Positions 7,281 to 63,338 of a DNA stretch of 64,000 nucleotides are shown here, in pieces (within the stretch, counting starts at the first letter, position 1; each line of letters opens with the position of its first letter). This DNA comes from Escherichia coli. GTDB lineage: Bacteria; Pseudomonadota; Gammaproteobacteria; Enterobacterales; Enterobacteriaceae. The notes below the pieces were generated by a model that had not been told where the DNA came from, ran no database searches, and saw nothing but the letters and a program-made list of their open reading frames with translations. Location: the NCBI RefSeq assembly GCF_030013595.1, contig NZ_CP122768.1, one strand, 5' to 3'. The translations under genes were made by a program, and so were the position numbers.

Positions 7281-9470
7281 ATGTTTGTGGAGCATAACCT
7301 GATAAAAAATATCAAGATATTCACACTAGCGTTTACGCTCACCGTGGTACTTATTCAGCTATCCCGTTTTATTTCGCCACTTGCCATTATCCATTCCAGT
7401 TATATCTTTCTGGCGTGGATGCCACTGTGCGTAATGCTGTCAATCTTGTTTATCTTTGGCTGGCGCGGTGTCGTTCCCGTTTTATGCGGGATGTTTTGCA
7501 CCAATCTGTGGAACTTTCATCTCTCTTTTTTACAGACTGCGGTCATGCTCGGCAGCCAGACGTTTGTCGTGTTGTGTGCCTGCGCAATATTACGCTGGCA
7601 GCTGGGGACGCGTTGGCGTTATGGATTGACCAGCCGATATGTCTGGCAACGTCTTTTCTGGCTTGGTTTGGTGACGCCTATCGGCATCAAATGCAGCATG
7701 TATCTTGTGGGGAGCTTTTTTGATTTCCCGCTAAAGATATCCACCTTTTTCGGCGATGCGGATGCCATTTTCACAGTCGTTGATTTACTAAGCCTTTTCA
7801 CCGCTGTGCTGATTTACAACATGCTTTTCTACTATCTCACTCGCATGATTGTAAGTCCCCACTTTGCGCAGATATTGTGGCGCAGGGATATCGCTCCGTC
7901 GTTGGGCAAAGAGAAACGCGCATTTACCTTAAGCTGGCTGGCAGCGTTAAGCGTGCTGCTACTTCTGCTGTGCACACCGTATGAAAATGACTTTATTGCC
8001 GGTTACCTGGTGCCCGTTTTCTTCATTATCTTCACCCTCGGGGTCGGTAAGCTCCGCTATCCGTTTTTAAATCTCACCTGGGCTGTTTCAACGCTTTGCC
8101 TTCTGAATTACAACCAGAACTTTTTGCAAGGGGTGGAAACCGAATATTCGCTGGCATTTATTCTCGCGGTGCTAATTTCCTTTAGCGTTTGCCTGCTCTA
8201 TATGGTGCGCATTTATCATCGCAGTGAATGGCTTAATCGCCGCTGGCATTTGCAGGCGCTGACCGATCCGTTAACGCTCCTACCCAACTTTCGTGCGTTA
8301 GAACAAGCGCCGGAGCAAGAGGCGGGCAAGAGTTTTTGCTGCCTGCGCATTGATAATCTTGAGTTTATGAGTCGTCATTACGGCTTAATGATGCGCGTTC
8401 ACTGTATCCGATCAATTTACCGTACGCTGCTGCCGTTGATGCAGGAAAACGAAAAGTTGTATCAATTGCCGGGTAGTGAACTGCTGTTAGTGCTGAGTGG
8501 ACCGGAAACGGAAGGGCGACTCCAGCATATGGTTAACATCCTGAATAGTCGGCAAATTCACTGGAACAATACCGGGCTGGATATGGGCTATGGTGCTGCC
8601 TGGGGGCGTTTTGATGGAAATCAGGAAACCCTGCAACCCTTGTTGGGGCAGTTAAGCTGGCTGGCGGAGCAATCCTGCGCACATCATCATGTGCTGGCGC
8701 TGGATAGCAGAGAGGAGATGGTTTCCGGGCAGACCACTAAACAGGTGCTATTGCTGAATACCATTCGCACGGCGTTAGATCAGGGGGATTTGCTGCTCTA
8801 CGCCCAGCCAATTCGCAACAAAGAGGGTGAAGGTTATGATGAGATCCTCGCGCGACTGAAATATGACGGCGGCATTATGACCCCGGATAAGTTTCTGCCC
8901 CTTATTGCTCAGTTTAACCTTAGCGCGCGTTTTGATTTGCAAGTGCTGGAATCCTTGTTGAAGTGGCTGACAACACACCCTTGCGACAAAAAAGGTCCGC
9001 GCTTTTCAGTCAATTTAATGCCGCTCACGCTGCTGCAAAAGAATATTGCCGGGCGGATTATTCGTCTGTTTAAGCGTTATCACATCTCCCCGCAGGCGGT
9101 CATTCTTGAGATCACCGAGGAGCAGGCGTTTTCTAACGCAGAAAGCAGCATGTACAACATCGAGCAACTGCATAAGTTTGGTTTCCGGATTGCGATTGAT
9201 GACTTTGGCACCGGCTATGCCAACTACGAACGGTTAAAGCGTTTGCAGGCTGATATCATCAAAATTGATGGCGTCTTTGTGAAAGATATTGTCACGAATA
9301 CGCTGGATGCGATGATTGTGAGATCAATTACCGATCTGGCGAAAGCGAAGTCATTGAGTGTGGTCGCGGAGTTTGTCGAGACGCAACAGCAGCAGGCGCT
9401 ATTGCATAAGCTCGGGGTGCAATATCTGCAAGGGTATTTGATTGGTCGCCCGCAGCCATTAGCTGATTAA
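7281..9470 (+). CDS. pdeA: c-di-GMP phosphodiesterase with N-terminal membrane sensor, degenerate GGDEF and EAL domains
   Basis: ORF 7221-9470; start refined to ATG 7281 (MFVEHNL..., 729 aa); multi-TM N-terminus; EAL-type C-terminus. Confidence 0.9.
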   Translation: MFVEHNLIKNIKIFTLAFTLTVVLIQLSRFISPLAIIHSSYIFLAWMPLCVMLSILFIFGWRGVVPVLCGMFCTNLWNFHLSFLQTAVMLGSQTFVVLCACAILRWQLGTRWRYGLTSRYVWQRLFWLGLVTPIGIKCSMYLVGSFFDFPLKISTFFGDADAIFTVVDLLSLFTAVLIYNMLFYYLTRMIVSPHFAQILWRRDIAPSLGKEKRAFTLSWLAALSVLLLLLCTPYENDFIAGYLVPVFFIIFTLGVGKLRYPFLNLTWAVSTLCLLNYNQNFLQGVETEYSLAFILAVLISFSVCLLYMVRIYHRSEWLNRRWHLQALTDPLTLLPNFRALEQAPEQEAGKSFCCLRIDNLEFMSRHYGLMMRVHCIRSIYRTLLPLMQENEKLYQLPGSELLLVLSGPETEGRLQHMVNILNSRQIHWNNTGLDMGYGAAWGRFDGNQETLQPLLGQLSWLAEQSCAHHHVLALDSREEMVSGQTTKQVLLLNTIRTALDQGDLLLYAQPIRNKEGEGYDEILARLKYDGGIMTPDKFLPLIAQFNLSARFDLQVLESLLKWLTTHPCDKKGPRFSVNLMPLTLLQKNIAGRIIRLFKRYHISPQAVILEITEEQAFSNAESSMYNIEQLHKFGFRIAIDDFGTGYANYERLKRLQADIIKIDGVFVKDIVTNTLDAMIVRSITDLAKAKSLSVVAEFVETQQQQALLHKLGVQYLQGYLIGRPQPLAD

Positions 9471-17131: not shown

Positions 17132-18217
17132 ATGACATTACTCGCTTCGCTGCGTGACTGGCTTAAGGCGCAACAACTGGATGCGGTGCTTCTCTCCTCA
17201 CGGCAGAACAAACAGCCGCATCTGGGGATCTCCACCGGATCAGGCTATGTGGTGATTAGCCGTGAAAGTGCGCACATTCTGGTGGACTCGCGCTATTACG
17301 CGGATGTCGAAGCCCGCACGCAAGGTTACCAGCTACATTTGCTTGACGCGACGCACACGCTTGCAACCATCGTCAATAAAATCATTGCCGATGAGCAGTT
17401 GCAAACGCTCGGTTTTGAAGGCCAGCAGGTAAATTGGGAAACCGCGCACCGCTGGCAGTCTGAACTCAATGCGAAACTGGTAAGCGCCACGCCGGATGTG
17501 CTGCGGCAAATCAAAACGCCAGAGGAGGTGGAGAAAATCCGCCTCGCCTGTGGGATTGCCGATCGCGGAGCGGAGCATATTCGCCGCTTTATTCAGGCGG
17601 GGATGAGCGAATGCGAGATTGCTGCTGAACTGGAGTGGTTTATGCGCCAGCAGGGCGCAGAAAAAGCCTCTTTCGATACCATTGTCGCCAGTGGCTGGCG
17701 TGGGGCGCTGCCGCACGGCAAAGCCAGCGACAAGATTGTTGCAGCGGGCGAGTTTGTCACTCTCGATTTCGGTGCGCTGTATCAGGGTTACTGCTCTGAT
17801 ATGACGCGTACCTTGCTTGTGAATGGCGAAGGGGTGAGCGCCGAATTTCACCCGCTGTTTGACGTCTATCAGATTGTTTTGCAGGCACAGCTCGCAGCAA
17901 TCTCCGCGATTCGCCCCGGCGTGCGCTGCCAGCAGGTTGACGACGCCGCGCGCCGGGTGATTACCGAGGCTGGATTTGGCGACTATTTCGGTCATAACAC
18001 CGGTCATGCTATCGGTATTGAAGTCCATGAAGATCCGCGTTTTTCACCGCGGGACACCACGACGCTACAGCCAGGCATGTTACTGACCGTGGAGCCGGGG
18101 ATTTATTTGCCAGGGCAAGGGGGCGTGCGCATCGAAGATGTTGTGCTGGTCACCCCGCAAGGCGCAGAAGTGCTCTACGCCATGCCGAAAACAGTGTTGC
18201 TCACGGGAGAGGCATAA
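17132..18217 (+). CDS. ypdF: M24-family Xaa-Pro aminopeptidase
   Basis: 361-aa ORF with creatinase/prolidase fold motifs (HGxGHxxGIEVHE). Confidence 0.9.
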
Positions 18218-40169: not shown

Positions 40170-40784
40170 TTAGCCGATTTTGTTACGTTGTGCGAATGTG
40201 TAAAGATCCATCAGTGATTTACATTCTAATTTTTCCATCAGGCGACTTTTATAAGTGCTGACAGTTTTGTTGCTGATGAACATTTTTTCCGCAATGTCAT
40301 TATTATCCTTGCCATCAAGAATATATCGCATGACACTAATTTCTTGTTTCGATAAGGAGTCGAGTTTTTGCTGGTCGGACGTTAAACTTCCAACAAACCG
40401 GTTGAGAGAGAAGGGGAAATAGCAGTAGCCATTTTTTGCAGCTTCAATAGCCGCAATGATATTGTTCATGCCTTCTTTTTTACTCACGAATCCATTAGCG
40501 CCAGCATCAGCACAATGTTTCCCGTAAAAATGGTCATTTTTAGCGGAGACGATAATAATAATTCCGCTATATTGGCGCTTCCTCAGCGTTTCTAACACCT
40601 GGATACCGTTAACTCCGGGGATATCGACATCAATGATGACGATATCAGGTTTAAGTGTTTCCACCCGCTGAACGGCACTTCCCCCTTCAGTCAACTCCGC
40701 TAAGATTTCAATATCGTTTTTGATCAATAAATTACGAATTGCTGCGATAGCAAGAGGATGGTCATCAATAATTATTGCGTTCAT
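40170..40784 (-). CDS. evgA: NarL/FixJ-family response regulator
   Basis: 204-aa ORF with REC and LuxR-type HTH. Confidence 0.95.
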   Translation of the reverse strand: MNAIIIDDHPLAIAAIRNLLIKNDIEILAELTEGGSAVQRVETLKPDIVIIDVDIPGVNGIQVLETLRKRQYSGIIIIVSAKNDHFYGKHCADAGANGFVSKKEGMNNIIAAIEAAKNGYCYFPFSLNRFVGSLTSDQQKLDSLSKQEISVMRYILDGKDNNDIAEKMFISNKTVSTYKSRLMEKLECKSLMDLYTFAQRNKIG

Positions 40785-41199
40785 AGATTATTCCCTTGGC
40801 AATGAAGCATCTCCCTTCTCCCTGTAGTAATACAGACATAAGGCATCATCTCATTTTCTCAATAAAAATAAGAAAATTTGAGCTTCCTTTAAGATAATTC
40901 GACAAGTATACCATATAAATAGTCGGCATAAATGAAATGTCAACAATAAAATCAGGGATTGTACCGATGATTTATAGTTTCACATTAGCACTATAAGTCT
41001 TCTCACTAATCCTACATGCGTAAGAATTGTATTGCAAAAGCTACGGTTTAGTCCTCTGTTGTTTTTTTTGCACCTCATTTAAATTAGGCCTCCAACGTTC
41101 CTGGGACAATGTGCAACACATGCACTGTGTTTGATATGAAGAATGAATACTCTTTTCATTCAATTCATAAATTTCATCTATGCGAAATGAGAGATAATA

Positions 41200-42363
41200 G
41201 TGGAACAGATTAATTCAAATAAAAAACATTCTAACAGAAGAAAATACTTTTCTTTATTGGCGGTAGTTTTATTTATTGCGTTTTCAGGTGCCTATGCCTA
41301 TTGGTCAATGGAATTAGAAGACATGATTAGTACAGATGATGCCTATGTCACGGGGAATGCAGATCCAATTTCTGCACAAGTTTCAGGCAGCGTCACTGTC
41401 GTTAATCATAAAGATACGAACTACGTTCGACAGGGTGACATTTTAGTCTCACTGGATAAGACTGATGCCACTATCGCACTCAATAAAGCTAAAAATAATC
41501 TGGCAAATATTGTTCGGCAAACGAATAAACTGTACTTACAGGATAAACAATACAGTGCCGAAGTCGCTTCAGCACGTATTCAGTATCAACAATCTTTAGA
41601 AGATTATAACCGTCGTGTGCCTTTAGCGAAGCAGGGGGTTATTTCAAAAGAAACGCTGGAGCATACCAAAGATACGTTAATAAGTAGCAAAGCGGCATTG
41701 AATGCCGCTATCCAGGCTTATAAAGCGAATAAAGCTTTAGTAATGAACACACCATTAAACCGTCAGCCACAAGTCGTTGAAGCTGCGGATGCAACCAAAG
41801 AAGCCTGGTTGGCGCTTAAACGTACGGATATTAAGAGTCCGGTTACCGGCTATATTGCCCAGCGAAGTGTTCAGGTCGGCGAAACAGTGAGTCCCGGACA
41901 ATCGTTAATGGCTGTCGTACCGGCACGTCAAATGTGGGTTAATGCTAACTTTAAAGAAACACAACTCACGGATGTACGGATTGGTCAATCGGTCAATATT
42001 ATCAGCGATCTTTATGGTGAAAATGTTGTGTTTCATGGTCGGGTGACAGGGATCAATATGGGAACCGGCAATGCGTTCTCCTTATTACCTGCACAAAATG
42101 CGACAGGGAACTGGATCAAAATCGTTCAGCGTGTACCGGTTGAAGTTTCTCTTGATCCAAAAGAACTCATGGAACATCCCTTACGTATTGGTTTATCGAT
42201 GACAGCAACTATTGATACGAAGAACGAAGACATTGCCGAGATGCCTGAGCTGGCTTCAACCGTGACGTCCATGCCTGCTTATACCAGTAAGGCTTTAGTT
42301 ATCGATACCAGTCCGATAGAAAAAGAAATTAGCAACATTATTTCGCATAATGGACAACTTTAA
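41200..42363 (+). CDS. emrK: multidrug efflux membrane fusion protein
   Basis: 387-aa ORF, GTG start, HlyD-family. Confidence 0.9.
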   Translation: MEQINSNKKHSNRRKYFSLLAVVLFIAFSGAYAYWSMELEDMISTDDAYVTGNADPISAQVSGSVTVVNHKDTNYVRQGDILVSLDKTDATIALNKAKNNLANIVRQTNKLYLQDKQYSAEVASARIQYQQSLEDYNRRVPLAKQGVISKETLEHTKDTLISSKAALNAAIQAYKANKALVMNTPLNRQPQVVEAADATKEAWLALKRTDIKSPVTGYIAQRSVQVGETVSPGQSLMAVVPARQMWVNANFKETQLTDVRIGQSVNIISDLYGENVVFHGRVTGINMGTGNAFSLLPAQNATGNWIKIVQRVPVEVSLDPKELMEHPLRIGLSMTATIDTKNEDIAEMPELASTVTSMPAYTSKALVIDTSPIEKEISNIISHNGQL

Positions 42364-46818: not shown

Positions 46819-48252
46819 TTAACCCAGTTGCCAGAGTGCTCCATGTTGCAGCACAGCCACTCCGTGGGAGGCATAGAGCGACAGTTCCCGTTCTTCTGGC
46901 TGCGGATATATTCGGCTACTCATCACCGCCTCCCCGTCGTTAATAAATACTTCCACGGATGATGTATCGATAAATATCCTTAGGGCGAGCATGTCACCCT
47001 GCGGGAGGGGAATACTACGGTAGCCATCTAAATTCTCGTGTGGGTAATACCGCCACAAAACAAGTCGCTCAGATTGGTTATCAATATACAGCCGCATTCC
47101 AGCGCCGAGCTGTAATCCGTAATGTTCGGCATCACTGTTCTTCAGCGCCCACTGCAACTGAATCTCAACTGCTTGCGCGTTTTCCTGCAAAACATATTTA
47201 TTGCTGATTGTGCGGGGAGAGATAGATTGATGCTGCTGGCGTAACGACTCAGCTTCGTGTACCGGGCGTTGTAGGAGTTTGCCATTGCTCTCTGATAGCT
47301 CGCGCGCCAGCGTCATGCAGCCTGCCCAGCCTTCACGTTTTGAGGGCATTGGCGATTCCCACATATCCATCCAGCCGATAACAATACGCCGACCATCCTT
47401 CGCTACAAAGCTTTGTGGTGCATAAAAGTCATGCCCGTTATCAAGTTCAGTAAAATGCCCGGATTGTGCAAAAAGTCGTCCTGGCGACCACATTCCGGGT
47501 ATTACGCCACTTTGAAAGCGATTTCGATAACTGTATCCCTCGGCATTCATTCCCTGCGGGGAAAACATCAGATAATGCTGATCGCCAAGGCTGAAAAAGT
47601 CCGGACATTCCCACATATAGCTTTCACCCGCATCAGCGTGGGCCAGTACGCGATCGAAAGTCCATTCACGCAATGAACTGCCGCGATAAAGCAGGATCTG
47701 CCCCGTGTTGCCTGGGTCTTTCGCCCCGACTACCATCCACCATGTGTCGGCTTCACGCCACACTTTAGGATCGCGGAAGTGCATGATGCCTTCTGGTGGA
47801 GTGAGGATCACACCCTGTTTCTCGAAATGAATACCATCCCGACTGGTAGCCAGACATTGTACTTCGCGAATTGCATCGTCATTACCTGCACCATCGAGCC
47901 AGACGTGTCCGGTGTAGATAAGTGAGAGGACACCATTGTCATCGACAGCACTACCTGAAAAACACCCGTCTTTGTCATTCTCGTCTCCTGGCGCTAGCGC
48001 AATAGGCTCATGCTGCCAGTGGATCATATCGTCGCTGGTGGCATGTCCCCAGTGCATTGGCCCCCAGTGTTCGCTCATCGGGTGATGTTGATAAAACGCG
48101 TGATAACGATCGTTAAACCAGATCAGGCCGTTTGGATCGTTCATCCACCCGGCAGGAGGCGCGAGGTGAAAATGGGGATAGAAAGTGTTACCTCGGCGCT
48201 CGTGAAGTTTTGCTAGTGCGTTTTGCGCCGCATGCAATCGAGATTGCGTCAT
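46819..48252 (-). CDS. cscA: sucrose-6-phosphate hydrolase/invertase (GH32)
   Basis: ORF 46819-48261 (start 48252 or 48261); GH32 motifs WMNDPNG and RDP present. Confidence 0.9.
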   Translation of the reverse strand: MTQSRLHAAQNALAKLHERRGNTFYPHFHLAPPAGWMNDPNGLIWFNDRYHAFYQHHPMSEHWGPMHWGHATSDDMIHWQHEPIALAPGDENDKDGCFSGSAVDDNGVLSLIYTGHVWLDGAGNDDAIREVQCLATSRDGIHFEKQGVILTPPEGIMHFRDPKVWREADTWWMVVGAKDPGNTGQILLYRGSSLREWTFDRVLAHADAGESYMWECPDFFSLGDQHYLMFSPQGMNAEGYSYRNRFQSGVIPGMWSPGRLFAQSGHFTELDNGHDFYAPQSFVAKDGRRIVIGWMDMWESPMPSKREGWAGCMTLARELSESNGKLLQRPVHEAESLRQQHQSISPRTISNKYVLQENAQAVEIQLQWALKNSDAEHYGLQLGAGMRLYIDNQSERLVLWRYYPHENLDGYRSIPLPQGDMLALRIFIDTSSVEVFINDGEAVMSSRIYPQPEERELSLYASHGVAVLQHGALWQLG

Positions 48253-48286
48253 TTTAATCATCCTGGTTAAGCAAATTTGGTGAATT

Positions 48287-48298
48287 GTTAACGTTAAC
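48287..48298. promoter_or_regulatory. putative CscR operator (palindrome GTTAACGTTAAC), copy 1
   Basis: Perfect 12-bp palindrome in the divergent cscA/cscK promoter region. Confidence 0.4.
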
Positions 48299-48350
48299 TT
48301 TTATAAAAATAAAGTCCCTTACTTTCATAAATGCGATGAATATCACAAAT

Positions 48351-48362
48351 GTTAACGTTAAC
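48351..48362. promoter_or_regulatory. putative CscR operator (palindrome GTTAACGTTAAC), copy 2
   Basis: Identical 12-bp palindrome 52 bp from copy 1. Confidence 0.4.
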
Positions 48363-48467
48363 TATGACGTTTTGTGATCGAATATGCATGTTTTAGTAAA
48401 TCCATGACGATTTTGCGAAAAAGAGGTTTATCACTATGCGTAAGTCAGATGAATTTAAGGGAAAAAA

Positions 48468-49382
48468 ATGTCAGCCAAAGTATGGGTTTTAGGGGATGCG
48501 GTCGTAGATCTCTTGCCAGAATCAGACGGGCGGCTACTGCCTTGTCCTGGCGGCGCGCCAGCTAACGTTGCGGTGGGAATCGCCAGATTAGGCGGAACAA
48601 GTGGGTTTATAGGTCGGGTCGGTGATGATCCTTTTGGTGCGTTAATGCAAAGAACGCTGCTAACTGAGGGTGTCGATATCACGTATCTGAAGCAAGATGA
48701 ATGGCACCGGACATCCACGGTGCTTGTCGATCTGAATGATCAAGGAGAACGTTCATTTACGTTTATGGTCCGCCCCAGTGCCGATCTTTTTTTAGAGACG
48801 ACAGACTTGCCCTGCTGGCGACATGGCGAATGGTTACATCTCTGTTCAATTGCGTTGTCTGCCGAGCCTTCGCGTACCAGCGCATTTACTGCGATGACGG
48901 CGATCCGGCATGCCGGAGGTTTTGTCAGCTTCGATCCCAATATTCGTGAAGATCTATGGCAAGACGAGCATTTGCTCCGCTTGTGTTTGCGGCAGGCGCT
49001 ACAACTGGCGGATGTCGTCAAGCTCTCGGAAGAAGAATGGCGACTTATCAGTGGAAAAACACAGAACGATCGGGATATATGCGCGCTGGCAAAAGAGTAT
49101 GAGATCGCCATGCTGTTGGTGACTAAAGGTGCAGAAGGGGTGGTGGTCTGTTATCGAGGACAAGTTCACCATTTTGCTGGAATGTCTGTGAATTGTGTCG
49201 ATAGTACTGGGGCGGGAGATGCGTTCGTTGCCGGGTTACTCACAGGTCTGTCCTCTACGGGGTTATCTACAGATGAGAGAGAAATGCGACGAATTATTGA
49301 TCTTGCTCAACGTTGCGGAGCGCTTGCAGTAACGGCGAAAGGGGCGATGACAGCGCTGCCATGTCGACAAGAACTGGAATAG
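48468..49382 (+). CDS. cscK: fructokinase (PfkB/ribokinase family)
   Basis: 304-aa ORF with GAGDAF motif. Confidence 0.9.
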   Translation: MSAKVWVLGDAVVDLLPESDGRLLPCPGGAPANVAVGIARLGGTSGFIGRVGDDPFGALMQRTLLTEGVDITYLKQDEWHRTSTVLVDLNDQGERSFTFMVRPSADLFLETTDLPCWRHGEWLHLCSIALSAEPSRTSAFTAMTAIRHAGGFVSFDPNIREDLWQDEHLLRLCLRQALQLADVVKLSEEEWRLISGKTQNDRDICALAKEYEIAMLLVTKGAEGVVVCYRGQVHHFAGMSVNCVDSTGAGDAFVAGLLTGLSSTGLSTDEREMRRIIDLAQRCGALAVTAKGAMTALPCRQELE

Positions 49383-49453
49383 TGAGAATTAAACGGCGAA
49401 GTCGCTCTTATCTCTAAATAGGACGTGAATTTTTTAACGACAGGCAGGTAATT

Positions 49454-50701
49454 ATGGCACTGAATATTCCATTCAGAAATGCGTACTATCGTTTGGCATC
49501 CAGTTACTCATTTCTCTTTTTTATTTCCTGGTCGCTGTGGTGGTCGTTATACGCTATTTGGCTGAAAGGACATCTAGGATTAACAGGGACGGAATTAGGT
49601 ACACTTTATTCGGTCAACCAGTTTACCAGCATTCTATTTATGATGTTCTACGGCATCGTTCAGGATAAACTCGGTCTGAAGAAACCGCTCATCTGGTGTA
49701 TGAGTTTCATTCTGGTCTTGACCGGACCGTTTATGATTTACGTTTATGAACCGTTACTGCAAAGCAATTTTTCTGTAGGTCTAATTCTGGGGGCGCTCTT
49801 TTTTGGCCTGGGGTATCTGGCGGGATGCGGTTTGCTTGACAGCTTCACCGAAAAAATGGCGCGAAATTTTCATTTCGAATATGGAACAGCGCGCGCCTGG
49901 GGATCTTTTGGCTATGCTATTGGCGCGTTCTTTGCCGGTATATTTTTTAGTATCAGTCCCCATATCAACTTCTGGTTGGTCTCGCTATTTGGCGCTGTAT
50001 TTATGATGATCAACATGCGTTTTAAAGATAAGGATCACCAGTGCATAGCGGCGGATGCGGGAGGGGTAAAAAAAGAGGATTTTATCGCAGTTTTCAAGGA
50101 TCGAAACTTCTGGGTTTTCGTCATATTTATTGTGGGGACGTGGTCTTTCTATAACATTTTTGATCAACAACTCTTTCCTGTCTTTTATGCAGGTTTATTC
50201 GAATCACACGATGTAGGAACGCGCCTGTATGGTTATCTCAACTCATTCCAGGTGGTACTCGAAGCGCTGTGCATGGCGATTATTCCTTTCTTTGTGAATC
50301 GGGTAGGGCCAAAAAATGCATTACTTATCGGTGTTGTGATTATGGCGTTGCGTATCCTTTCCTGCGCGTTGTTCGTTAACCCCTGGATTATTTCATTAGT
50401 GAAGCTGTTACATGCCATTGAGGTTCCACTTTGTGTCATATCCGTCTTCAAATACAGCGTGGCAAACTTTGATAAGCGCCTGTCGTCGACGATCTTTCTG
50501 ATTGGTTTTCAAATTGCCAGTTCGCTTGGGATTGTGCTGCTTTCAACGCCGACTGGGATACTCTTTGACCACGCAGGCTACCAGACAGTTTTCTTCGCAA
50601 TTTCGGGTATTGTCTGCCTGATGTTGCTATTTGGCATTTTCTTCCTGAGTAAAAAACGCGAGCAAATAGTTATGGAAACGCCTGTACCTTCAGCAATATA
50701 G
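49454..50701 (+). CDS. cscB: sucrose:H+ symporter (MFS, LacY-like)
   Basis: 415-aa 12-TM ORF. Confidence 0.9.
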   Translation: MALNIPFRNAYYRLASSYSFLFFISWSLWWSLYAIWLKGHLGLTGTELGTLYSVNQFTSILFMMFYGIVQDKLGLKKPLIWCMSFILVLTGPFMIYVYEPLLQSNFSVGLILGALFFGLGYLAGCGLLDSFTEKMARNFHFEYGTARAWGSFGYAIGAFFAGIFFSISPHINFWLVSLFGAVFMMINMRFKDKDHQCIAADAGGVKKEDFIAVFKDRNFWVFVIFIVGTWSFYNIFDQQLFPVFYAGLFESHDVGTRLYGYLNSFQVVLEALCMAIIPFFVNRVGPKNALLIGVVIMALRILSCALFVNPWIISLVKLLHAIEVPLCVISVFKYSVANFDKRLSSTIFLIGFQIASSLGIVLLSTPTGILFDHAGYQTVFFAISGIVCLMLLFGIFFLSKKREQIVMETPVPSAI

Positions 50702-51143
50702 ACGTAAACTTTTTCCGGTTGTTGTCGATATCTCCATATCCCTCAACCGGAAAATAATAATACAAAAATGCTTAGCCCAACTAATAATCACCTAATCCAA
50801 ACGCCTCATTCATGTTCTGGTACAGTCGCTCAAATGTACTCCGGATACGCGGTTCGCTGATTTCCAGGACATTGTCGTCATTCAGCGACCTGTCCCGAGT
50901 ATCACGGGCCTGCGAATTCATCAAGGAATGCATTGCAGAGTGAAGTATCGAGTCACGCCATATTTCGCTATCAGGATTCTGTATGATGGTTACATCGCCC
51001 GGCCCAGGGCTGTTTAGTCATCAGCGCTTTCTGACAGTGCTGAGATTTCAACCTGTTGCAGTAAAAATGAGTAGATATAGGGCAAGTGTGCTGCCAAACC
51101 CATCTTTTACGGGGTGAAGGTAGATTTGGTTTGAAGGGTATCT

Positions 51144-51158
51144 GGTGTCCCCTGCAGA
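51144..51158. other. putative prophage att core (attR): 15-nt identity to the 3' end of tRNA-Arg argW
   Basis: Minus strand reads CTGCAGGGGACACCA, matching the argW 3' terminus as recalled, without the rest of the tRNA; lies about 70 bp from the torI-like gene. Confidence 0.45.
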
Positions 51159-51230
51159 CATCTACTTGAGGCGGCAGGGGATTGATTGGAATGGTGTTTT
51201 TTAGATGTGAAAAATATTTTACCCGCTATT

Positions 51231-51431
51231 TTACCCATTGGCGCGGCTTAAGAGCTTATTTTTGAATTCACAATGGTCACGATATAACCATCTTGCTCGC
51301 CCGTGGATAACTTTGGCTTTTGGCAGGTCGCCGGACTTAATCCGGTCATAGATGAAGGTTTTACCGAATCCAGTATCGGCCATGATGAATTTCAAATCAA
51401 CCAGTGAATCAGGCTGTAGTTCGTGTTGCAT
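51231..51431 (-). CDS. torI: AlpA/Xis-family excisionase (recombination directionality factor), TorI-like
   Basis: 66-aa ORF at the prophage edge next to the att core; size and position match KplE1 TorI; identity from recall. Confidence 0.6.
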   Translation of the reverse strand: MQHELQPDSLVDLKFIMADTGFGKTFIYDRIKSGDLPKAKVIHGRARWLYRDHCEFKNKLLSRANG

Positions 51432-57397: not shown

Positions 57398-58255
57398 TTA
57401 TCGTTTATTTCTTTGATGTTTCTTTGCTGACTCAGCTTGAGTGTTTCCATACCTGCGTTTACCGCTATTGTTTTTTCCTCTAGGCTTGCCTTTTTTTCGA
57501 TCTTCCCACCAGTCAGGTGCCGGGTCTGGCTCAACATGTAAAGCATCGGCAAGTCCTGATATCAAGCTGTATGACTGAACTCCATCAATGTGCTCTGACA
57601 GTGATGGGGTAACATTCTGTCTTAGTGGATCAAGAATAAAATCAATACCTTTAATTCTGGCGTGTTTGGCGGCAGGCACAAAGTCTGAGTCCCCAGCAAC
57701 AAGGACAATTACATCAACAAGTTTTTCATAAGCTAAAGTCGTGATATCCATCCCTAGCTTGATATCAACTTGTTTTTGTTTGATGTCATAGTAAAAATCA
57801 TCATTTGTCAGTTCATCCCATTTTTTCGTTCCTTTCATCAGAGCATCAAGGGAGAATGTAGTTAGTTGCCATCGCTTATTATCAACAAGATTCCCTAATC
57901 TTAAGGCTGTTTTTCGAGTTTTTCTTAACTCTTCATGCAGCTCCGTTCTCAGAATATATGATTTTTCGAGTTTGAAATTCTTGCGACCAGGCGTCTTATT
58001 GCCAGGCTCAGGAAGTGGAAGGCGTGTTTGAATGTCGAGTGGTGGACAGTCATAGAAGTAAATTCTATAAAGCTCAAGCGGTTCCCTACGTTCTTGTGAT
58101 TGACGTTTTCCATTAAGATGGGAAAGAACCATTGACCATATTACTTTCATTATGCATTGCGCAGTCAGTTCATGCTCGGCGAAGTGTTTACGATGCGTAG
58201 CATGAACACGCTGCATGAAAAAACCCGCATCAATTAAAATTGCTGCTTTCTTCAT
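57398..58255 (-). CDS. NYN/LabA-like (PIN-fold) nuclease-domain protein with Lys/Arg-rich C-terminal tail; candidate prophage exclusion/defence protein in the rex position
   Basis: 285-aa ORF: N-terminal AILIDAGFF and central VLVAGDSDFVPAAKHARIKGIDF NYN-type motifs; basic tail; between cI and pL/N; AT-rich. Confidence 0.75.
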   Translation of the reverse strand: MKKAAILIDAGFFMQRVHATHRKHFAEHELTAQCIMKVIWSMVLSHLNGKRQSQERREPLELYRIYFYDCPPLDIQTRLPLPEPGNKTPGRKNFKLEKSYILRTELHEELRKTRKTALRLGNLVDNKRWQLTTFSLDALMKGTKKWDELTNDDFYYDIKQKQVDIKLGMDITTLAYEKLVDVIVLVAGDSDFVPAAKHARIKGIDFILDPLRQNVTPSLSEHIDGVQSYSLISGLADALHVEPDPAPDWWEDRKKGKPRGKNNSGKRRYGNTQAESAKKHQRNKR

Positions 58256-60738: not shown

Positions 60739-61436
60739 AAAACATCGCCGCACAGATGGTTAACTTTGACCGTGAGCAGATGCGTCGGATCGCCAACAAC
60801 ATGCCGGAACAGTACGACGAAAAGCCGCAGGTACAACAGGTAGCGCAGATCATCAATGGTGTGTTCAGCCAGTTACTGGCAACTTTCCCGGCGAGCCAGG
60901 CTAACCGGGACCAGAACGAACTGAACGAAATCCGCCGCCAGTGGGTGCTGGCTTTCCGGGAAAACGGGATCACCACGATGGAACAGGTTAACGCAGGAAT
61001 GCGCGTAGCCCGTCGGCAGAATCGACCATTTCTGCCATCACCCGGGCAGTTTGTTGCATGGTGCCGGGAAGAAGCATCCGTTACCGCCGGACTGCCAAAC
61101 GTCAGCGAGCTGGTTGATATGGTTTACGAGTATTGCCGGAAGCGAGGCCTGTATCCGGATGCGGAGTCTTATCCGTGGAAATCAAACGCGCACTACTGGC
61201 TGGTTACCAACCTGTATCAGAACATGCGGGCCAATGCGCTTACTGATGCGGAATTACGCCGTAAGGCCGCAGATGAGCTTGTCCATATGACTGCGAGAAT
61301 TAACCGTGGTGAGGCGATCCCTGAACCAGTAAAACAACTTCCTGTCATGGGCGGTAGACCTCTAAATCGTGCACAGGCTCTGGCGAAGATCGCAGAAATC
61401 AAAGCTAAGTTCGGACTGAAAGGAGCAAGTGTATGA
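60735..61436 (+). CDS. P: replication protein P (DnaB helicase loader)
   Basis: 233-aa ORF; ATGA overlap with O stop. Confidence 0.95.
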   Translation: MKNIAAQMVNFDREQMRRIANNMPEQYDEKPQVQQVAQIINGVFSQLLATFPASQANRDQNELNEIRRQWVLAFRENGITTMEQVNAGMRVARRQNRPFLPSPGQFVAWCREEASVTAGLPNVSELVDMVYEYCRKRGLYPDAESYPWKSNAHYWLVTNLYQNMRANALTDAELRRKAADELVHMTARINRGEAIPEPVKQLPVMGGRPLNRAQALAKIAEIKAKFGLKGASV

Positions 61437-61723
61437 CGGGCAAAGAGGCAATTATTCATTACCTGGGGACGCATAATAGCTTCTGTGCGCCGGACGTTGC
61501 CGCGCTAACAGGCGCAACAGTAACCAGCATAAATCAGGCCGCGGCTAAAATGGCACGGGCAGGTCTTCTGGTTATCGAAGGTAAGGTCTGGCGAACGGTG
61601 TATTACCGGTTTGCTACCAGGGAAGAACGGGAAGGAAAGATGAGCACGAACCTGATTTTTAAGGAGTGTCGCCAGAGTGCCGCGATGAAACGGGTATTGG
61701 CGGTATATGGAGTTAAAAGATGA
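61433..61723 (+). CDS. ren: Ren (Rex exclusion protection protein)
   Basis: 96-aa ORF immediately after P with ATGA overlap. Confidence 0.85.
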   Translation: MTGKEAIIHYLGTHNSFCAPDVAALTGATVTSINQAAAKMARAGLLVIEGKVWRTVYYRFATREEREGKMSTNLIFKECRQSAAMKRVLAVYGVKR

Positions 61724-61749
61724 CCATCTACATTACTGAGCTAATAACA

Positions 61750-61780
61750 GGCCTGCTGGTAATCGCAGGCCTTTTTATTT
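61750..61780 (+). terminator. tR2-like rho-independent terminator
   Basis: caggcctgctggtaatcgcaggcc hairpin followed by TTTTTATTT between ren and ninB. Confidence 0.5.
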
Positions 61781-61796
61781 GGGGGAGAGGGAAGTC

Positions 61797-62237
61797 ATGA
61801 AAAAACTAACCTTTGAAATTCGATCTCCAGCACATCAGCAAAACGCTATTCACGCAGTACAGCAAATCCTTCCAGACCCAACCAAACCAATCGTAGTAAC
61901 CATTCAGGAGCGCAACCGCAGCTTAGACCAAAATCGGAAGCTTTGGGCTTGCCTTGGTGACGTTTCGCGTCAGGTTGAATGGCATGGTCGCTGGCTGGAT
62001 GCAGAAAGCTGGAAGTGTGTGTTTACCGCAGCATTAAAGCAGCAGGATGTTGTTCCTAACCTTGCCGGGAATGGCTTTGTGGTAATAGGCCAGTCAACCA
62101 GCAGGATGCGTGTAAACGAATTTGCGGAGCTATTAGAGCTTATACAGGCATTCGGTACAGAGCGTGGCGTTAAGTGGTCAGACGAAGCGAGACTGGCTCT
62201 GGAGTGGAAAGCGAGATGGGGAGATCGGGCTGCATGA
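61797..62237 (+). CDS. ninB: NinB recombination protein (Orf)
   Basis: ORF 61779-62237; start refined to ATG 61797 after GGGGGAGAGGG. Confidence 0.85.
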   Translation: MKKLTFEIRSPAHQQNAIHAVQQILPDPTKPIVVTIQERNRSLDQNRKLWACLGDVSRQVEWHGRWLDAESWKCVFTAALKQQDVVPNLAGNGFVVIGQSTSRMRVNEFAELLELIQAFGTERGVKWSDEARLALEWKARWGDRAA

Positions 62238-62761
62238 CTATCAAATCAAATACGCCAGCACACGACAAGGACTGCTGGCAAACGCCGCTTTGGCTTTTTG
62301 ATGCACTGGATATTGAGTTTGGATTCTGGCTGGATTCGGCAGCGAGCGACAAAAATGCTCTGTGTGCTCACTGGCTAACTGAGGCCGACGACGCGCTCAA
62401 TTCTGAGTGGGTAAGCCACGGTGCAATCTGGAATAACCCACCGTACAGCAATATCAGGCCGTGGGTGGAAAAAGCCGCTGAGCAGTGCATACAACAGCGA
62501 CAGACGGTAGTGATGCTTGTGCCAGAGGATATGTCAGTCGGATGGTTCAGCAAGGCTCTGGAGAGTGTCGACGAAGTTCGCATTATCACTGATGGACGGA
62601 TTAATTTTATCGAACCATCGACGGGGCTGGAGAAGAAGGGAAACAGCAAAGGCTCCATGCTGCTGATTTGGCGACCGTTCATCAGTCCTCGACGGATGTT
62701 TACTACCGTATCCAAAGCGGCATTGATAGCGATCGGGCAGGGCGTCAGGAGGGCGGCATGA
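62234..62761 (+). CDS. phage N6-adenine DNA methyltransferase (orphan)
   Basis: ORF 62174-62761; start ATG 62234 overlapping ninB stop; NPPY catalytic motif (IWNNPPYS). Confidence 0.8.
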
Positions 62762-62934
62762 GGCGACAGCGACGAAGTTTCACCGACATCATCTGCGAAA
62801 ACTGCAAATACCTTCCAACGAAACGCTCCAGAAATAAACGCAAGCCAATCCCAAAAGAATCTGACGTAAAAACCTTCAACTACACGGCTCACCTGTGGGA
62901 TATCCGGTGGCTAAGACATCGTGCGAGGAAATGA
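62758..62934 (+). CDS. ninE: NinE
   Basis: [27 protein letters not shown]... within ORF 62668-62934; ATGA overlap with methyltransferase stop. Confidence 0.75.
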
Positions 62935-62936
62935 CA

Positions 62937-63338
62937 ATGCTTTTAATTCAACCTGGATTTGGCCTTAGCATCAAAAAAGGACACATGTTTGGCGAGAAAG
63001 AGTCACAACGAAAAATGGTGTCTATCCGGTTGCCATTTATCAGTATTTATTGGCTAAACAGGGAGGCAACAAATTATTGGTATACATGCGCCAGAGCAGC
63101 ATTTAACGACCCTGACTGGTTTGTGAAAAACCACCATGCGGTTCGTCAGGCAAAGAGAAAGGCCAATACGACATACATGAAGGCGTATCGAAAAGCATGG
63201 AAAGAACACCGCGATCGATACCAGCAAGACATGGAAAAGCTTGAATCAGAAAACATGGAATTAAGACGAAAGCTTGGTGAAGCAAAACGAGACATTGATG
63301 CTTACAAGCGACTTTTTAATGGTGAAAGCCATGCTTAG
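62937..63338 (+). CDS. hypothetical nin-region protein with C-terminal coiled coil
   Basis: ORF 62895-63338; likely start ATG 62937 after GAGG; C-terminal QQDMEKLESENMELRRKLGEAKRDIDAYKRL heptad-like. Confidence 0.4.
   Translation: MLLIQPGFGLSIKKGHMFGEKESQRKMVSIRLPFISIYWLNREATNYWYTCARAAFNDPDWFVKNHHAVRQAKRKANTTYMKAYRKAWKEHRDRYQQDMEKLESENMELRRKLGEAKRDIDAYKRLFNGESHA

Follow-up and report, generated by a model that had tools for sequence, protein, structure and literature searches.

A second GATC methylase, apparently convergently evolved, is encoded by many lambdoid phages whose host is itself dam+. Why should such a phage encode an activity that the host already supplies, and what kind of enzyme is it? 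The locus that raises this question lies in the nin region of a prophage near the end of a 64,000-nucleotide stretch of Escherichia coli DNA (contig NZ_CP122768.1, hereafter the window), where a small adenine methyltransferase gene, here called dam, is inserted between ninB and ninE. We consider it about 85% probable that this gene is a copy of the phage enzyme M.EcoVT2Dam, that it methylates GATC, and that it boosts GATC methylation in lytic growth.

Read directly from the window sequence, the dam open reading frame is intact and runs from an ATG at 62234 to a TGA at 62759-62761 on the plus strand, a 528-bp gene for 175 amino acids. RefSeq uses the same ATG form (528 bp, WP_000153277.1). The ninB stop TGA (62235-62237) overlaps the dam ATG (62234-62236), and the dam stop (62759-62761) overlaps the ninE ATG (62758-62760), with ATGA as the junction in both cases. 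Direct reading confirms the preliminary description of a 175-residue, NPPY-containing frame that overlaps both neighbours at its start and stop. The gene and its immediate surroundings are as follows.

61797 to 62237, plus strand: ninB (orf), recombination mediator gene (Pfam PF05772, E 1.2e-54)
62218 to 62223, plus strand: Shine-Dalgarno-like GGGGAG within the end of ninB, 10 nt 5' of the dam ATG, read from the sequence and of putative function
62234 to 62761, plus strand: dam, encoding a 175-residue phage N6-adenine DNA methyltransferase, 174/175 identical to M.EcoVT2Dam
62747 to 62752, plus strand: AGGAGG Shine-Dalgarno sequence of ninE within the 3' end of dam, 5 nt ahead of the ninE ATG, read from the sequence
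62758 to 62934, plus strand: ninE (Pfam PF05322, E 4.2e-43), with DNA 97% identical to that of ninE in lambda

The ATGA overlaps suggest that dam is translated in step with ninB and ninE. A GTG at 62174, which would give a 195-residue product, was rejected as the true start, because matches to the family profiles set in at residue 2-4 of the ATG-initiated protein. A GATC site, the reported target of the dam product, is present at 62223-62226 between the Shine-Dalgarno-like run and the dam ATG, and its position is probably coincidental. A 233-residue database protein with 41 member sequences carries both the methyltransferase family PF05869 and PF05322 (NinE), and its length equals that of Dam (175) plus NinE (58). 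This form could have arisen by a frameshift or by loss of the stop codon where the two genes overlap at ATGA, or it may be an artefact of gene calling.

Comparison with phage lambda defines what the gene replaces in this slot. The window is 98.3% identical to lambda 40247-41084 over 61400-62237 (blastn), and this homology ends at the ninB stop (62237, corresponding to lambda 41084) and resumes at 62765, corresponding to lambda 42097, inside ninE. Two features frame the comparison.

61749 to 61782, plus strand: intrinsic-terminator-like hairpin and T-run upstream of ninB, with an 8-bp stem containing 6 GC pairs (hairpin 61749-61772) followed by TTTTATTTGG
62238 to 62764, plus strand: mosaic cassette relative to lambda, in which 527 bp replace lambda 41085-42096 (ninC and most of ninD, to 7 bp into ninE)

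Relative to lambda, this is a clean mosaic cassette exchange at gene borders. Lambda ninC and ninD fill this ninB-ninE interval with borders identical to those of the window dam; their products are unrelated to the methyltransferase: NinC is PAPS-reductase-like (PF01507) and NinD belongs to PF17466. In the pR operon, dam follows cro, cII, O, P and ren, and the hairpin presumably sits where lambda tR2 is expected. Given a terminator-like hairpin 5' of ninB, the genes downstream should need N antitermination. The earlier placement of dam in a delayed-early operon holds on these grounds, whereas the translational coupling proposed with it is a suggestion drawn from the overlaps.

Several other parts of this prophage also depart from lambda or bear on its completeness. 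A 133-residue open reading frame lies between ninE and ninF (62937-63335, plus strand), where lambda has only 33 bp (lambda 42264-42296). It lacks a Pfam family and has a sub-threshold CagS match only; phage E212 carries a 100% identical copy with the annotation hypothetical. Between N and cI, in the position of lambda rexAB, a 285-residue frame (57398-58255, minus strand) encodes an NYN (predicted ribonuclease) domain with a weak PADLOC match to the candidate defence family HEC-09 (E 2e-4), and may be a prophage-borne defence or exclusion gene. On the left side, sucrose-utilisation-like genes (46819-51431) abut the first early-left open reading frames of the prophage at ~51.2 kb.

46819 to 48261: GH32 invertase
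48468 to 49382: PfkB kinase
49454 to 50701: LacY-type permease

An integrase frame and a tRNA gene are absent between the sucrose-like genes and the early-left frames, and the prophage may be without its int end, or may be a remnant.

The identity of the gene product is clear from family searches, in which its match is far beyond chance. It matches Pfam PF05869 'Dam' with an E-value of 1.6e-64 and 217.1 bits (cut-off 28.1; profile positions 1-167 of 169), NCBIfam TIGR01712 (phage N-6-adenine-methyltransferase, an equivalog model) with 264.3 bits (cut-off 97.05; profile positions 1-165 of 165), and PHROG 111 'DNA methyltransferase' with an E-value of 4e-87. Among individual proteins, it is identical at 174 of 175 residues to orf32 of phage VT2-Sakai (BAA84315), which is M.EcoVT2Dam. 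The sole difference, I165 in the window protein in place of M in VT2-Sakai, is conservative and falls in the C-terminal helix, in a variable alignment column. The VT2-Sakai gene order, nin146 (ninB)-orf32-nin60 (ninE), reproduces the slot of the window dam, with equal protein length and the same overlaps. The two genes differ in their carriers, as M.EcoVT2Dam comes from an Stx2 phage, whereas the window phage is not an Stx phage and has its best DNA match in the Lederbergvirus phage E212 (61433-63338).

According to PMC6602927, M.EcoVT2Dam of prophage VT2-Sa is an orphan methyltransferase 'known to target 5'-GATC-3'', a statement for which that article cites Radlinska & Bujnicki (2001, Acta Microbiol Pol 50:161), who cloned the enzyme in 2001 as cited there. 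From the reported specificity of this near-identical enzyme, the window protein is predicted to methylate GATC. Because a single residue separates the two proteins, the determination of a target motif proposed in the preliminary description has in effect already been done; and because GATC is the site that host Dam already methylates, the gene brings no new specificity. The window dam is already known, being routinely annotated, covered by curated family models and one residue from a cloned enzyme. It carries little weight as a discovery, and its remaining value is that of a minimal GATC methylase duplicating host Dam activity.

Conserved residues and a structural model define the kind of methyltransferase involved. 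We aligned 33 sequences (alignment A1): 31 homologues whose identity to the window protein is 33-86%, together with that protein itself and the YfdM fragment of K-12. Among the homologues, 7 belong to distant phages of Proteus, Vibrio, Serratia, Klebsiella, Shigella, Actinobacillus and Lactococcus. Six residues are invariant across all 33 sequences (T17, D34, L55, N68, P69 and P70), and Y71 is at least 90% conserved. An AlphaFold2 model built on A1 (mean pLDDT 91.7, pTM 0.88) folds as a single alpha/beta domain, on which two conserved sites are placed as follows.

62333 to 62335, plus strand: codon of D34, at the end of the first beta-strand (31-34) in the AlphaFold model and within the motif LD(S/A)AA; invariant in A1 and presumed to be the SAM-binding acidic residue
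62435 to 62446, plus strand: codons of N68-P69-P70-Y71, the NPPY catalytic motif IV of N6-adenine methyltransferases, conserved in A1 and directly after model strand 64-67

Compared with solved structures, the AlphaFold model shows the class I (Rossmann-fold) SAM-dependent methyltransferase fold and is closest to N6-adenine methyltransferases; motif IV directly follows the fourth core strand, as expected of class I N6-adenine methyltransferases. The structural matches, each with its score, are listed here.

PCIF1/CAPAM cap adenosine-N6 methyltransferase: 11.3
M.BseCI: 9.4
M.TaqI: 9.3
MmeI: 9.2
CamA: 8.7
Type I HsdM subunits: 7.5-8.7
E. coli Dam (9% identity): 8.2
T4 Dam: 7.7

A phmmer search of the dam product against all PDB sequences gave chance-level matches only (E 0.24 or worse), and by this search the family has no member with a solved structure. 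We take the order of W-Q-T-P, then LD(S/A)AA, then NPPY to resemble the gamma-class motif order X-I-IV of M.TaqI and HsdM. Family, motif and predicted fold agree in bearing out the assignment of the gene product as an N6-adenine DNA methyltransferase. The preliminary description had named the absence of a methyltransferase fold as grounds for giving up this assignment; the model shows the fold, so it is not refuted.

A separate target-recognition domain is absent from the 175-residue, single-domain model. This economy would fit an enzyme whose specificity in vivo is broader than GATC or different from it, serving as a general anti-restriction methylase against several host restriction-modification systems, and some prophage adenine methylases, M.EcoGI and M.EcoGII, are indeed listed as non-specific (Table 3, PMC6602927). 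Such relaxed specificity is nevertheless very unlikely for the window protein, as M.EcoVT2Dam, reported to be GATC-specific, departs from it only by a single conservative substitution in the variable C-terminal helix. Furthermore, the O111 strain 95NR1 carries two copies, and its new motif, CRARCAG, was assigned by the authors to another enzyme. M.EcoGI and M.EcoGII presumably belong to a different family than the window protein.

The genomic surroundings support the view that dam is an orphan methyltransferase. Its neighbours are NinB, NinE, the 133-residue frame without a family and NinF, and Pfam and PADLOC scans recognised no restriction endonuclease gene among the prophage open reading frames of the window. 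The window ends 1.2 kb downstream of dam, and HNH or NUMOD4 endonuclease genes adjoin dam in some Stx phages, so one might picture the gene as the methylase half of a restriction-modification system with its nuclease nearby or just past the window end. We give this arrangement next to no chance. The annotated continuation in phage E212 contains NinF, Roi, a junction resolvase, NinH, Q and lysis genes, and that in the CP53 prophage contains NinF, NinG, Q, tRNAs and lysis genes, with no restriction enzyme downstream of dam in either; HNH and NUMOD4 proteins are homing-endonuclease types and are absent from the window; and the best PADLOC matches of the dam product are 'orphan methyltransferase' models. 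The earlier remark that no restriction partner is nearby is borne out in the window, in E212 and in CP53, as far as families are recognisable.

The same gene is widespread. At a threshold of at least 95% nucleotide identity, dam is present in 1565 of 5426 complete E. coli genomes (~3 in 10), where copies are annotated as 'phage N-6-adenine-methyltransferase' and usually lie between ninB and ninE; few accessory genes of E. coli lambdoid prophages are as common as dam. When window 61433-63338, a 1.9-kb query reaching from ren to the frame that follows ninE, was searched, 449 phage records matched, many of them Stx1- and Stx2-converting phages. Phage E212 DNA is 100% identical over this interval, and for dam alone a prophage of E. 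coli CP53 carries a 100% identical gene. This record bears on whether the window frame might be an inactive relic carried along with the nin region, a view to which lambda, which lacks the gene, and the duplication of a host function lend something. Several observations make inactivity highly improbable. Firstly, the frame is full-length, covering profile positions 1-167 of 169, and has all invariant residues of the family. Secondly, nucleotide identity of 95-100% has been kept in more than 1500 genomes. Finally, truncated forms such as yfdM are easily recognised by contrast.

Relatives that carry dam show further rearrangements around it. In the CP53 prophage, an IS5 element interrupts cro (7762-9161 of the CP53 stretch examined). 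An HNH/NUMOD4 homing-endonuclease-type gene directly adjoins dam in many Stx phages and O157:H7 prophages (e.g., KU238067.1, phage P27, and NZ_CP027435.1), and the nin region of dam-carrying relatives has further insertions, for instance of ant. The neighbourhood of dam appears to be a hot spot at which cassettes insert.

The yfdM gene of the K-12 prophage CPS-53 had been proposed as a methyltransferase fragment at a comparable place, with the window dam as its ancestral intact form. The first part of this proposal stands, since YfdM (91 residues) matches PF05869 at profile positions 3-69 of 169, ending just past NPPY. The second part does not. A search of the phage collection shows residues 1-89 of YfdM to be 100% identical to Dam of phages SfV, SfII and many E. 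coli phages, whereas YfdM is only 38% identical to the window protein over 82 amino acids. SfV Dam is a 217-residue, full-length PF05869 protein (E 9.7e-46) that is 31% identical to the window protein over 143 amino acids. The neighbours of yfdM also differ: in place of ninB and ninE, it is flanked by yfdO and a PerC-like gene, yfdN, at one end and by the tail-fibre fragment yfdL at the opposite end, and SfV dam, which sits after a replication gene and a PerC-like gene, mirrors the yfdO-yfdN-yfdM order of CPS-53. The window dam was accordingly rejected as the ancestral intact form of yfdM, which, by sequence identity with SfV-type Dam over its N-terminal 89 residues, is a remnant of a different lineage within the same family.

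The SfV-type enzymes, YfdM included, share with the window protein PF05869, the motifs W-x-T-P, LD and NPPY, and the status of an early-region accessory gene downstream of replication genes. SfV Dam differs in an insertion after NPPY and in its flanking PerC-like and repressor-like genes. In RefSeq, the product of SfV dam (SfVp41 of NC_003444; 3001-3654 of the SfV stretch examined) is named 'phosphoadenosine phosphosulfate reductase', a name also found on the SfII and Stx2a_WGPS2 copies; the SfV protein is without a PAPS-reductase match, and the name is probably a mislabel.

What, then, would a GATC methylase do for a phage of a dam+ host? The role of phage Dam enzymes 'is still not well understood' (PMC7556043), and the lambda annotation contains no dam gene, so the gene is dispensable. 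Supplementing host Dam in lytic replication is the likely function. In the mechanism we propose, dam would be a delayed-early lytic gene, reached by transcription from pR only once N allows polymerase to pass the terminator ahead of ninB. Lytic phage replication would outrun the limited host Dam, and a phage-made GATC methylase would keep progeny DNA fully methylated. Two benefits may follow: methylated progeny DNA would be protected in the next host from methylation-sensitive restriction enzymes that cut GATC, and full methylation would spare phage DNA MutH cleavage and SeqA binding at un- or hemimethylated GATC. The virion DNA of lambda and P22 is undermethylated according to the literature. 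The role suggested in the preliminary description, 'anti-restriction or epigenetic regulation', is plausible.

GATC frequency in the window speaks neither for nor against selection. The prophage part has 3.67 sites per kb (44 observed, 54 expected) and the host part 4.26 per kb (213 observed, 240 expected); GATC depletion or enrichment as a signal of selection was rejected, there being no informative difference between the two parts.

Expression data come from the Stx phage Phi24B, whose dam coding sequence (17559-18086) has the same length and is listed as 100% to VT2-Sakai NP_050531.1 (PMC3342100). In that study, dam (CM2) was one of five CMAT genes, four of which followed a lytic pattern, and its expression changed significantly on prophage induction (PMC3342100). 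The dam product was also recovered from Phi24B lysogen cultures, and the authors suggested that it may supplement host Dam (PMC3342100), on which stable 933W lysogeny depends according to Murphy et al. (2008), cited in that article. These points invite a reading in which the enzyme acts in the lysogen as an epigenetic regulator, adding to host Dam activity to stabilise lysogeny or alter host expression. We regard a lysogenic role as quite improbable, as the pR operon, in which dam follows cro, cII, O and P as well as a terminator-like hairpin, should be silent under cI repression, and the lytic pattern of four of the five CMAT genes and the response of CM2 to induction also speak against it. 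Spontaneously induced cells are therefore the best explanation for the signal from lysogen cultures.

A variant of the lytic reading is conceivable, if unlikely: the main job of the enzyme may be a timed override of host sensing of GATC hemimethylation (SeqA sequestration, nicking by MutH, or a defence system responding to unmethylated GATC on phage DNA as it replicates) rather than classical anti-restriction, or its recognition of GATC may use a structural solution unseen in solved methyltransferases. The preferred reading of a copy of M.EcoVT2Dam that supplements GATC methylation in lytic growth can be set against other known Dam enzymes, within the family and beyond it.

Within the family, T1 and HP1 Dam are, we presume, relatives of the window protein. 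Homologues from the T1-like Drexlerviridae (SFP17, GH-K3) and from phage Aaphi23, which represents the HP1/Aaphi23 type of Haemophilus phages, are 33-39% identical to it in A1 (31-35% by tblastn) and have in common the invariant T17, D34 and NPP. They differ in that some are longer, with an insertion between strands, and in their genomic contexts, which are other than the nin slot and partly those of virulent phages. The literature also mentions two other phage enzymes: HP1 Dam is cited in PMC7556043, and the prophage methylase of the ST131 methylome paper belongs to a different family, PF02086 (PMC4659465).

PF02086 is the family of the alpha-class enzymes E. coli Dam and T4 Dam, which are without detectable sequence relationship to the window protein and only 8-9% identical to it in structural alignment. 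A Pfam scan of the window protein gave no PF02086 match, which places it outside the alpha-class Dam group of E. coli Dam, T4 Dam and DpnM. Because the sequences are unrelated, the GATC specificity shared with E. coli Dam looks convergent, a point also made for another phage GATC methylase (PMC7556043). The architectures differ as well. Alpha-class enzymes follow the order FxGxG, target-recognition domain, DPPY, whereas the window protein has an N-terminal W-x-T-P, then LD and NPPY, without an inserted target-recognition domain; and in structure it is matched best by M.TaqI, M.BseCI, HsdM-type enzymes and PCIF1 rather than by Dam. GATC specificity thus appears to have arisen independently in a minimal methylase that is nearer to M.TaqI and the HsdM-type enzymes than to Dam.
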